Of a DNA stretch of 64,000 bases, positions 8,929 through 11,954 are shown piece after piece (the first letter of the stretch is position 1; every line of letters starts with the position of its first letter). The translations under genes and the position numbers were made by a program. Under the pieces are notes generated by a model that saw only the letters and a list, made by a program, of their open reading frames with translations, made no database searches and was not told where the DNA came from. Source of the stretch: an uncultured Bacillota bacterium (lineage in GTDB: Bacteria; Bacillota_I; Bacilli_A; RF39; UBA660). The stretch spans positions 2,521-66,520 of the forward strand of contig CAOJZV010000006.1 of the NCBI GenBank assembly GCA_948466255.1. The letters are read 5' to 3'.

Positions 8929-11229
8929 ATGGTTGATACAGAAGAAACTTTAGCAACTTTGAAAGTTGTAAAACGTAATGGAAAAAAAGTAGAATGGAAT
9001 GGGACTAAAATTGCAGTAGCAATAAAAAAAGGATTCGACAGTGTTAAAACTGAAGATGAAGAAAATAAATATACTGAAAAAGATATTAATAAAATATTTA
9101 ATGCAGTTGTAAAAAGAATTGAAAAAGAATATTTAGCTGATGAAAAAATTAAAATTGAACAAATTCAAGATTTAATTGAAGAAGAACTTCATAAAAAAGG
9201 ATATGAAGATGTTTATAAATCATTTTCTGAATACCGCGTGCGAAGAAATATGTCTAGACAAATGTTCTTTGGTGAAAAAAAACAACATAAATTCTTAAAA
9301 GCGATTGAAAATTTAGGTTTAAAATCAGCGCATGAGGAAGATGCGAAAAGGGAAAATGCTAATGTTGATGGTGATACAGCAATGGGAACTATGCTTCAAT
9401 ATGGAAGTACTGTTTCTAAAGAATTTGCGAAAGCTTATTTAATGAAACCTAAATTTGCTGAGGCTCATGACAATGGTGATATTCATATTCATGATATGGA
9501 CTTTATGCCAATGGGAACTACTACTTGTTGCCAAATCGATTTAAAGAAATTATTTGATAAAGGTTTTTCTACTGGACATGGTCATTTAAGAGAACCTCAA
9601 GGTATTATGAGTTATTCTGCATTAGCTGCTATTGCTATTCAGTCTAACCAAAACGACCAACACGGTGGGCAAAGTATTCCAGCATTTGATTATTATTTAG
9701 CGCCTGGTGTACTTATTACTTTTAAAAAACAATTTAAACAAGCAATTTGTGATTATTTAGATTTTACTGAATTTGGTAATTTTATCAATATGGATAGAAT
9801 TGCTAAAGATATTGATAAAATAAAATCTATTGAAGTTGATTTAAATGAATTTGATGGATACGCTAAAGGCTCTGAAGAAGTTAAACGTTTATTTAAAGTT
9901 GCTTATAAAAAAGCTTTAGCAAAAACTGATAGGGAAACTTATCAAGCTATGGAAGCATTTATTCACAATTTAAATACAATGCATTCTCGTGCCGGAGCTC
10001 AAGTTCCATTTTCATCTATTAACTTTGGAACTGATACTTCAGCTGAAGGTAGAATGGTAGTTCGTAATTATTTACTTGCTACTGATTCTGGGCTTGGTAA
10101 TCATGAAACACCAATTTTCCCAATTTCTATATTTAAGGTTAAAGAAGGGGTTAACTATAATCCAGAAGATCCTAACTATGATTTATTTAAATTATCTTGT
10201 GAGGTTTCTGCTAAGAGATTATTCCCTAACTTCTCATTTATAGATTCTACATTTAATAAAGCTACTTATAATCCAGATGATTATAGAACTGAAGTTGGTT
10301 ATATGGGATGTAGAACAAGAGTACTTGCTGATATAACATCGCCTGATAATCAAATTACTCCAGGAAGGGGTAACTTATCATTTACTTCAATTAACTTACC
10401 TAGATTAGGTATCAAACATGGACAAGTTAGTGGTGAACTTGATATGGATGCATTTTATGCTGAACTTGGAGAATTAATGGATTTAGTTAAAGATCAATTA
10501 CTTGAAAGATTTGAAATTCAATGTTCAAGACATGTTTATAATTTCCCATTCTTACTTGGGCAAGGTGTTTGGATTGACAGTGAAAGATTAAAACCTGGTG
10601 ATAGATTAAGAAAAGTTTTAAAACACGGTACTTTAACAGTTGGGTTTATCGGCCTTGCTGAATGTTTAGTAGCTTTAACTGGTAAACATCATGGTCAAAG
10701 TGAAGATTCTCAAAAATTAGGTTTAGAAATTATTGAATTTATGAGAAAAAGAACTGATGAGTACGCTCAAAAATATAATTTAAATTTCTCTTTAATTGCT
10801 ACACCTGCTGAAGGCTTATCTGGAAGATTTACTAATATAGATAAAGCAGTTTATGGTAAATTAAAAGGAATTACTGATAGAGATTATTATACTAATTCAT
10901 TCCATGTTCCTGTTTATTATAATATTTCAATAGCTAGGAAACTTGAATTAGAAGGACCTTACCACAACCTTACAAATGGTGGTCATATTAGTTATGTTGA
11001 ACTTGATGGTGATACGGCTATGAATACTGATGCATTTGAAAAAATTGTAAGACTTATGCATGATAATAATATTGGGTATGGAGCAATCAATCACCCAGTT
11101 GATAGAGATCCAGTATGTGGATATACAGGGGTTATTGGAGATGTTTGTCCAGGATGTGGACGTAGAGAAGGCGAAGGCGTTCCAATTGAAAGAGTTAAAA
11201 ATGCAGATTTAACTTGTTGCGGAAGATAG
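8929..11229 (+). CDS. nrdD: Anaerobic ribonucleoside-triphosphate reductase (class III RNR) body, lacking the glycyl-radical motif
   Basis: N-terminal ATP-cone (VVKRNGKKVEWNGTKI) and an NrdD core (GTTTCCQIDL, NLSFTSINLPRLG, ATPAEGLSGRF, CPGCG Zn-ribbon). The ORF ends at TAG 11227-11229 before any RxxGY motif. Confidence 0.9.
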   Translation: MVDTEETLATLKVVKRNGKKVEWNGTKIAVAIKKGFDSVKTEDEENKYTEKDINKIFNAVVKRIEKEYLADEKIKIEQIQDLIEEELHKKGYEDVYKSFSEYRVRRNMSRQMFFGEKKQHKFLKAIENLGLKSAHEEDAKRENANVDGDTAMGTMLQYGSTVSKEFAKAYLMKPKFAEAHDNGDIHIHDMDFMPMGTTTCCQIDLKKLFDKGFSTGHGHLREPQGIMSYSALAAIAIQSNQNDQHGGQSIPAFDYYLAPGVLITFKKQFKQAICDYLDFTEFGNFINMDRIAKDIDKIKSIEVDLNEFDGYAKGSEEVKRLFKVAYKKALAKTDRETYQAMEAFIHNLNTMHSRAGAQVPFSSINFGTDTSAEGRMVVRNYLLATDSGLGNHETPIFPISIFKVKEGVNYNPEDPNYDLFKLSCEVSAKRLFPNFSFIDSTFNKATYNPDDYRTEVGYMGCRTRVLADITSPDNQITPGRGNLSFTSINLPRLGIKHGQVSGELDMDAFYAELGELMDLVKDQLLERFEIQCSRHVYNFPFLLGQGVWIDSERLKPGDRLRKVLKHGTLTVGFIGLAECLVALTGKHHGQSEDSQKLGLEIIEFMRKRTDEYAQKYNLNFSLIATPAEGLSGRFTNIDKAVYGKLKGITDRDYYTNSFHVPVYYNISIARKLELEGPYHNLTNGGHISYVELDGDTAMNTDAFEKIVRLMHDNNIGYGAINHPVDRDPVCGYTGVIGDVCPGCGRREGEGVPIERVKNADLTCCGR

Positions 11230-11241
11230 GAGGATATAAAA

Positions 11242-11403
11242 ATGAAAGCAGAAGAAAAAAAAGTTGGCGAAGGAGTTAAATTCGAAAGAATTAGAAGAAT
11301 TACTGGTTATTTAGTAGGAACTACTGATAAATTTAATAACGGTAAAAGAGCCGAAGAACAAGATAGAGTTAAACATGATGCTTCTAAAATAATTTCAAAA
11401 TAA
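11242..11403 (+). CDS. Stand-alone glycyl-radical domain peptide of NrdD (53 aa)
   Basis: Not in the ORF track because it is under 60 aa. Translation: MKAEEKKVGEGVKFERIRRITGYLVGTTDKFNNGKRAEEQDRVKHDASKIISK. This is the class III RNR C-terminal motif (RxxGY...FNxGKxxE...RVKH). An AGGAGG SD lies 8 nt upstream. The ORF is in the same frame as nrdD and its TAA overlaps the nrdG ATG (TAATG). Confidence 0.75.
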   Translation: MKAEEKKVGEGVKFERIRRITGYLVGTTDKFNNGKRAEEQDRVKHDASKIISK

Positions 11404-11954
11404 TGAAAATTCGTTTAGCTAGTGATTTACAATCAGATAGTATTGTAGATGGTGAAGGAATTAGGACAGTTATTTGGACGCAAGGTTGCTCTCATAACTG
11501 TCCTGGTTGCCATAATCCGGCCACTCATGATTTTAATGGCGGATTTTTAACTGATACTGATGAAATAAATAAGGAATTATCTTTATTAAAAGCTCAAACA
11601 GGCATTACTTTTTCTGGTGGTGATCCACTATTTCAAGTGGAAGCTTGCACAGAAATAGCAAAACATGCTAAAAAAATTGGTATGAATGTTTGGTGCTATA
11701 CAGGATTTACTTTTGAAGAGTTAATTAAATCTAAAAAGAATATAGAGTTTCTTAAATATGTTGATGTATTAGTTGATGGTAAGTTTATCATGGCAGAAAG
11801 AAGCTTAAATGTTGATTTTAGAGGTTCACGTAATCAACGTATTATTGATGTACCAGCTTCATTAGAAGAAAGTAGGGTAGTTTTAATACCTAAATATATT
11901 GGTGAAAGATATGTTGATGTAAGCATTCCTAAAAAAGAACATATTTATATATAA
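11403..11954 (+). CDS. nrdG: Anaerobic RNR activating protein (radical SAM)
   Basis: CxxxCxxC cluster motif GCSHNCPGCHNP. Size and position are typical of NrdG. Confidence 0.9.
   Translation: MKIRLASDLQSDSIVDGEGIRTVIWTQGCSHNCPGCHNPATHDFNGGFLTDTDEINKELSLLKAQTGITFSGGDPLFQVEACTEIAKHAKKIGMNVWCYTGFTFEELIKSKKNIEFLKYVDVLVDGKFIMAERSLNVDFRGSRNQRIIDVPASLEESRVVLIPKYIGERYVDVSIPKKEHIYI

Follow-up and report, generated by a model that had tools for sequence, protein, structure and literature searches.

In a 64,000-nucleotide (nt) stretch of contig CAOJZV010000006.1 from an uncultured Bacillota bacterium (hereafter, the window), the coding sequence of the class III ribonucleotide reductase NrdD is divided between two open reading frames (ORFs), a body of 766 amino acids (aa) and a 53-aa peptide that carries the glycyl-radical domain, followed by the activase gene nrdG. 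A ten-codon core adjoining the break is found on both pieces. We interpret the locus as a conserved two-gene enzyme in which the paired cores are remnants of an old event in which the radical domain was duplicated in tandem, a reading to which we assign a probability of roughly two in three. An original prediction, made from the sequence alone, had described the split as lying inside a 96-nt (32-codon) tandem duplication; its coordinates, sequences and translations were correct, and the observation is partly confirmed, as a real 10-codon overlap rather than a 32-codon repeat.

A separate ORF carries the glycyl-radical loop of NrdD

The large ORF matches PF03477, positions 1-531 of 562 of PF13597 (631 bits), and profile columns 3-713 of 746 of NCBIfam NF005497 (1013.5 bits, cut-off 764). 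Its C-terminus reads ...CPGCGRREGEGVPIERVKNADLTCCGR-TAG, and the glycyl-radical loop is absent from its 766 residues. The motif RRITGYL...DRVKH sits on the 53-aa ORF, not on the barrel polypeptide; this small ORF (translation, MKAEEKKVGEGVKFERIRRITGYLVGTTDKFNNGKRAEEQDRVKHDASKIISK) covers NF005497 columns 710-744, beginning at column 710 where the large ORF reaches column 713, and its radical glycine is Gly22 (codon GGT, 11305-11307). The features of the locus, in window coordinates, are as follows.

8929-11229, forward strand: nrdD large ORF, 766 aa, with ATP-cone, catalytic barrel, zinc ribbon and a short tail; stop codon TAG at 11227-11229
11146-11163, forward strand: second half of the zinc ribbon, CPGCGR, aligned to CPKCGSH of Prevotella copri NrdD (PDB 8P23)
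11170-11199, forward strand: upstream core copy GEGVPIERVK, in the tail of the large ORF; matches 11266-11295 at 23/30 nt; NF011292 columns 583-590; ratio of non-synonymous to synonymous substitution rates (dN/dS) 0.10
11200-11226, forward strand: remaining tail NADLTCCGR, with Leu at the radical-Gly equivalent and no detectable similarity to the radical domain (P = 0.9 and 0.45)
11227-11241, forward strand: junction, with the TAG inside the Shine-Dalgarno sequence T-AGGAGG (11228-11233), then an 8-nt spacer to the ATG
11242-11403, forward strand: small ORF, 53 aa, with a K/E-rich leader (MKAEEKKV) and the glycyl-radical domain (PF13597 positions 532-562, E = 1.9e-8)
11266-11295, forward strand: downstream intact core copy GEGVKFERIR, continuing into RRITGYL, at the same position as the sole copy of one-piece relatives
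11403-11954, forward strand: nrdG activase (TIGR02491, 159 bits, cut-off 126; PF13353)

The three genes are packed closely together as one unit, with 12 nt separating the large-ORF stop from the small ORF. The ATG of nrdG and the TAA of the small ORF overlap by one base (TAATG, window 11401-11405), which implies that the radical peptide and the activase would be translationally coupled.

Ten codons are shared across the break

Aligned in register, segments 11170-11265 and 11266-11361 are identical at 45/96 nt, compared with a background of 31 +/- 5 of 96 for in-frame pairs within the same gene, 0.3% of random pairs reaching 45. The first 30 nt carry the resemblance, with 23 identical positions (P ~ 5e-6), and the peptides they encode, GEGVPIERVK and GEGVKFERIR, align with a BLOSUM score of 35 (P ~ 1.5e-5). 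The remaining 66 nt are at background (22 identical, 33%; P = 0.45), and the corresponding 22 codons give P = 0.16 at the protein level. The proposed 96-nt duplication therefore stands for its first 30 nt but not for the rest: the GGA shared at codon 18 and the KAEE/KRAEE pairing, which had been cited in its favour, lie beyond codon 10, where identity is at background level, and are not above chance, and the latter is out of register as well.

The 32-codon period is not conserved either. Searching 41 related genomes, we recovered the gene from 20 species of this genus (congeners, 69-93% identity), in which the two GEGV codon groups lie 91-105 nt apart, a spacing that is often not a multiple of three; an offset of 96 nt occurs only in the window and in one other congener species, and far larger gaps are seen in Clostridia. 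In every congener species the two copies of the 30-nt core are identical at 19-23 positions, because of conserved amino acids and codon bias, the synonymous sites being saturated (synonymous divergence, dS, ~1 within the genus). For the same reason the match of 11 of 12 nt, although present, stems from conserved amino acids and is no sign of recent copying. The first Gly codon of the upstream core (window 11170-11172) is GGC, as it is in 14/19 congeners, despite the A+T-rich composition of the genus and its saturated synonymous sites.

Both copies of the core fall on the same eight columns of profile NF011292 (GVPIERVK running to column 590, GVKFERIR starting at column 583). One-piece relatives hold exactly one copy, directly after the zinc ribbon, as exemplified by a relative from the same order (CPGCNRTEEDGVLFERIRRITGYL) and another from the same class (CPKCHREEDSVKFERIRRITGYL); many one-piece database proteins read CPGCGR.E.DGVKFERIRRITGYL, and the one-piece genes that we collected (L021, L022, L078, L088 and P0128-P0241) read CP.CGR.E.DGVKFERIRRITGYL. 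The check on orthologues that the original prediction had proposed thus gave one copy in one-piece genes and two in all split genes. The overlap duplication at the break is real, and GEGVPIERVK and GEGVKFERIR are two descendants of one ancestral segment, which in one-piece enzymes joins the zinc ribbon to the glycyl-radical loop.

The break is conserved and both pieces are under purifying selection

The break occurs at the same place in 20/20 of the congeners. All 20 large ORFs end in ...GEGVP[IM]ER[IV]KN..L...GR, followed by TAG in 19 species and TAA in one, and the junction GGAAGATAGGAGG is kept in 17/20. The gap between the stop and the small-ORF ATG varies from 7 to 21 nt over all three frames, with the small ORF in frame +1 or +2 in 8/20 species. 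Within the genus, where dS is ~1, the tail core has a dN/dS of 0.10 and the small ORF one of 0.07, compared with 0.05 in a control stretch of the body; both pieces are under purifying selection.

It could be asked whether the TAG is a real break at all, since in the window the two ORFs share a reading frame and are parted by one TAG codon; it might instead be a recent nonsense mutation or mark a pseudogene, result from misassembly, or be read through or recoded to yield a one-piece protein with an internal repeat. Such readings are extremely improbable: the occurrence of the same break in 20 independent assemblies of different species, with eight small ORFs in other frames and one TAA stop, rules out recent nonsense mutation, misassembly and read-through alike. 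TAG terminates 10/36 long ORFs in the window, and is thus an ordinary stop here. The perfect Shine-Dalgarno sequence and ATG are conserved, selection acts on both parts, and no other reductase was found in six congeners (see below). The view that the split evolved, rather than arising from a random nonsense hit, is upheld on the same grounds.

A class I or II reductase (PF02867) was not found in six congeners, two of which are represented by single-contig genomes, and the split nrdD is the sole NrdD in those two, so that the two-piece enzyme is probably the only ribonucleotide reductase of these congeners. It is also the only NrdD found in the assembly containing the window (68% complete). Some congeners carry a second, one-piece NrdD of another subfamily, ~32% identical to the window NrdD and with the motif RRTCGYIG (L027, L028, L029; G021:C23:100932-103028), and this paralogue is the only NrdD found in genomes G001, G004 and G015.

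The overlap is common to a widespread family of split NrdDs

Relatives of the small ORF with lengths of 29-93 aa form more than 7,900 clusters at 90% identity, as a lower bound. Among the best 80 genome loci, 72 combine a truncated nrdD with the small ORF behind it, in six the 500 nt preceding the small ORF contain no zinc-ribbon motif, and two are one-piece. Among the hosts are uncultured gut Bacilli, Oscillospiraceae, Lachnospiraceae, Butyricicoccus, Mogibacterium, Holdemanella, Scatolibacter and Succinivibrio dextrinosolvens DSM 3072, the last with the same three-gene operon; the layout recurs in many Clostridia and Bacilli, as well as in cultured Succinivibrio and Bilophila. Six metagenome bins, titled Muribaculaceae (L033, L035, L042, L069), Rickettsiales (L039) and thaumarchaeote (L105), hold nrdD loci of Bacilli or Clostridia type, and their organism labels are probably wrong.

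The tails of the large subunits fall into three classes: short, Cys-containing tails of Bacilli, which include that of the window; tails of the form ...ELRKKYP..P.F.G.E, in many Clostridia; and long tails of 40-50 residues. All 83 distinct tails start with the core G-E-x-V-x-x-E-[KR]-[LIV] or one of its close variants, indicating that the overlap is old and common to the whole split family and is not an event of this genus. With the same tail family appearing across phyla, a local or recent duplication is not supported.

These data also bear on the possibility that there was no duplication, the resemblance having arisen by chance in A+T-rich, Lys/Glu-rich coding sequence and the upstream segment being an unrelated linker. 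For codons 11-32 in the window this is the best description, as 66/96 nt and 22/32 codons are at background, and the variable period (91-105 nt in the genus) and the weak scores of tails against a radical-domain hidden Markov model (HMM) point the same way. It is contradicted for the core, which is far above chance (P ~ 1e-5), shares profile columns with the downstream copy, occurs exactly once at that position in one-piece relatives and opens 83/83 tails; as an account of the overlap we consider it very unlikely.

Relatives suggest that the tail is a decayed radical domain

Longer tails are found elsewhere in the family. The long tails of seven split relatives are collinear with the radical domain from GEGV to EE.DR (for example, GEGVPLEKLKKLGLYKNYNSTTIGYHGDQNEEADR), with a Tyr at the position of the radical-motif Tyr and, in L056, G-Y retained. 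A profile of the long tails aligned to the radical-domain profile (hhalign) with a probability of 83% (E = 9e-6, 34 aligned columns); the real score was reached by 0/300 column shuffles when the core was removed and by 2/300 when the core was kept and the rest shuffled. In pairwise Smith-Waterman comparisons, the long tails beyond the core gave p = 0.0065-0.3 against the radical domain.

A search with the junction region as query further revealed three one-piece NrdDs in which the radical domain is present twice, complete and in tandem, each confirmed on DNA:

P0122, L119:1501-4038: period of 47 codons
P0124, L120:1501-3975: period of 39 codons
P0123, L121:1481-4021: period of 47 codons

In L119 the two domain copies are near-identical in nucleotide sequence, whereas those of L120 differ at 20 synonymous and 9 non-synonymous codons and those of L121 at 14 and 9, respectively; the predominance of synonymous differences in L120 and L121 indicates that both copies have been kept by selection for some time. 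In-place tandem duplication of this segment therefore occurs in nature, and repeatedly. The natural duplicates span 39-47 codons and include DRVKH, unlike the 32-codon unit first proposed. On a tree of NrdD bodies (FastTree, 110 rows, with some long branches), the tandem-domain P0122 is sister to the long-tailed split L048 (support 93). The three proteins may be enzymes with a built-in second radical domain, possibly "two-shot" enzymes.

The suggestion that the stop, Shine-Dalgarno sequence and start arose in a redundant copy accordingly finds support in relatives, through the tandem domains and the vestiges in long tails, as far as decay of the upstream copy is concerned, but its 32-codon unit does not stand. 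In the history that we favour, the 3' end coding for the radical domain would first have been duplicated in tandem; the upstream copy would then have lost its radical motif and decayed; a stop within a Shine-Dalgarno sequence, together with an ATG, would have arisen in the decayed stretch; and the downstream copy would thereby have become a separately translated subunit. Duplication and split would both long predate this genus, the four steps presumably following in this order. In the window the decayed copy would have been shortened to 19 residues, hence only its first 10 codons would be recognisable.

Several observations weigh against this history. In the window no similarity was detectable beyond the 10 codons in either nucleotide or protein comparison, the tail beyond the core giving p = 0.9 against the radical domain (pairwise Smith-Waterman). 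A radical-domain HMM run on the 83 distinct tails, a search too strict for decayed sequence, recovered the core alone, at under 10 bits. The tandem-domain NrdDs are rare: they amount to three single-member clusters, and every one lies on a short contig. On the body tree, split and one-piece forms are interleaved, and well-supported branches force at least seven changes between them; a single clean origin of the split is thereby ruled out, and the history would include re-fusions, transfers or repeated origins rather than one simple path. An AlphaFold2 model of the read-through fusion (TAG rendered as Gln, 134-row alignment) has a mean predicted local distance difference test (pLDDT) score of 82.6, dropping under 50 over the tail end and linker (residues 759-776) and again over the radical loop (residues 791-803), so that it is uninformative on docking.

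Finally, the same overlap would result from capture, in which a free-standing, possibly mobile radical-domain minigene was inserted between nrdD and nrdG and the resident domain, now redundant, decayed and was cut short. Free-standing copies do exist: Bilophila wadsworthia ATCC 49260 (G041, locus L090) has a truncated nrdD with a linked small ORF at C35:2225-4942 and, in addition, five unlinked small radical-domain ORFs (C33:34113, C75:16940, C115:4807, C28:43225 and C15:61279), one of which adjoins a C5 DNA methylase, and extra unlinked copies are present in Desulfovibrio (G042), Crickella (G043) and a Peptococcaceae genome (G044). The interleaved body tree would fit such movement as well. 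We nevertheless consider capture unlikely, because in-frame tandem domain duplications exist in one-piece genes, near-identical at the nucleotide level in L119; because the window genome has a single copy, with no sign of a mobile element at the junction (12-nt gap, coupled nrdG); and because the small ORF opens with the GEGV.FER segment that follows the zinc ribbon in one-piece genes, as fits a local copy of the 3' end.

Movement in the opposite direction, from two pieces to one, is suggested for P0125 and P0126, which are nested inside split clades and look like secondary re-fusions by stop loss. The one-piece NrdDs P0125, P0126, P0127, P0132 and P0208 have an insert of 25-110 residues between the zinc ribbon and the radical domain, and that of P0125 includes ELRKKYP, the motif seen in tails of split Clostridia.

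Tail cysteines and the zinc ribbon

The original prediction had also touched on the zinc site, noting that the first zinc Cys appears to be replaced and that the degenerate copy supplies a CC pair. The replacement is present: where P. copri NrdD reads RCLDCGY...CPKCG, the window has Asp for the first Cys (RDPVCGY). A link of this replacement to the split, and a supply of zinc ligands by the tail, are not supported, however. Asp at this position (DRDPVCG) is found in 104/120 one-piece relatives, so that the substitution is unrelated to the split. The tail cysteines take the form of CC in three congeners and a single Cys in most and are absent in two, and 33/83 distinct tails have no Cys of any kind; a tail that varies in this way cannot be an obligatory zinc ligand, and we rejected completion of the zinc site by tail Cys on this ground.

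In several lineages (L037, L051, L058, L071, L086, L096, L099 and L107) Cys pairs end both the tail and the small subunit, as in L037, where the tail ends in ..NCDCNR* and the small ORF in ..GICSCTK*. Such pairs could form a shared metal site or disulfide clasp between the chains, an arrangement that does not apply to the small ORF of the window.

A possible role for the retained strand

In the two-gene enzyme that we propose, production of the small peptide would be coordinated with that of the body and activase, NrdG would place the radical on Gly22 of the peptide, and the peptide loop would insert into the barrel in trans, like the attached domain of one-piece enzymes. The low dN/dS of the tail core (0.10) suggests that the upstream strand has kept a role, which may be structural or one of docking, and the analysis pinpoints a specific 10-residue segment for the question of how a free radical peptide docks into the body.

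A bolder extension, which we regard as rather doubtful, is that the body copy of the core is the docking element for the free radical peptide, that recurrent tandem duplication is the route to two-piece NrdDs, and that recombination between the direct copies is the way back, which would explain the interleaved tree. The upstream strand would then be more than a scar, and tandem duplication would be a recurrent path from one-piece to two-piece NrdD. Simple recombination of this kind is disfavoured by the one-piece forms nested among split Bacilli, in which the segment reads E.DGVKF and not EGEGVKF.

Comparison with known systems

Glycyl-radical enzymes are described as single chains with their own radical domain, whereas here the radical domain of a reductase appears as a separate gene product; we found neither a split NrdD nor a class III spare part described in searches of full-text literature. 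With one-piece class III NrdD/NrdG systems (P. copri, PDB 8P23; phage T4 and E. coli NrdD; NF005497 / TIGR02487) the window shares the ATP-cone, the barrel, the MGCR finger loop, the zinc ribbon, RRITGYL...DRVKH and an adjacent nrdG. It differs from them in that the polypeptide is interrupted after the zinc ribbon and before the radical loop, with the radical Gly on a separate 53-aa protein and ten codons of the connecting segment on both pieces. The Asp in place of the first zinc Cys of P. copri NrdD is a further difference, shared with the one-piece members of the window subfamily.

Free radical-domain proteins are known only for formate lyases according to reviews of 2021 and 2026 (PMC8683613, PMC13450708), the latter of which leaves open whether other glycyl-radical enzymes have spare parts (PMC13450708). 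Like GrcA/YfiD of E. coli and Y06I of phage T4, the spare parts of pyruvate formate-lyase, the window small ORF is a small free-standing glycyl-radical-only protein. Unlike GrcA/YfiD, it is of NrdD type (matching PF13597 only, without a PF01228 match), and its partner lacks a radical domain of its own, so that the small protein would be a regular subunit rather than a reserve. Oxygen-cleaved pyruvate formate-lyase keeps a strand that overlaps one in YfiD, and removal of this strand impairs rescue (PMC13450708); the retained overlapping strand parallels the overlap at the nrdD break.

A reductase catalytic chain is likewise encoded in two adjacent genes in the split class II enzyme NrdJa/NrdJb of Pseudomonas aeruginosa (Crona et al. 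2015, cited in PMC9669993), which belongs to another class, is split at another point and involves no radical-bearing minipeptide.

The closest general parallel is the model of gene fission by duplication and complementary degeneration: as in that model, a duplicated segment flanks the break, one copy has apparently decayed, and full tandem intermediates are found in relatives. The junction overlap, the tandem-domain enzymes and the vestiges in long tails together provide a concrete, testable path for the origin of the split. What sets the nrdD case apart from the general fission model is that the duplicated unit would comprise only the last ~40-47 codons and that its product would be a 5-6-kDa peptide bearing the cofactor.

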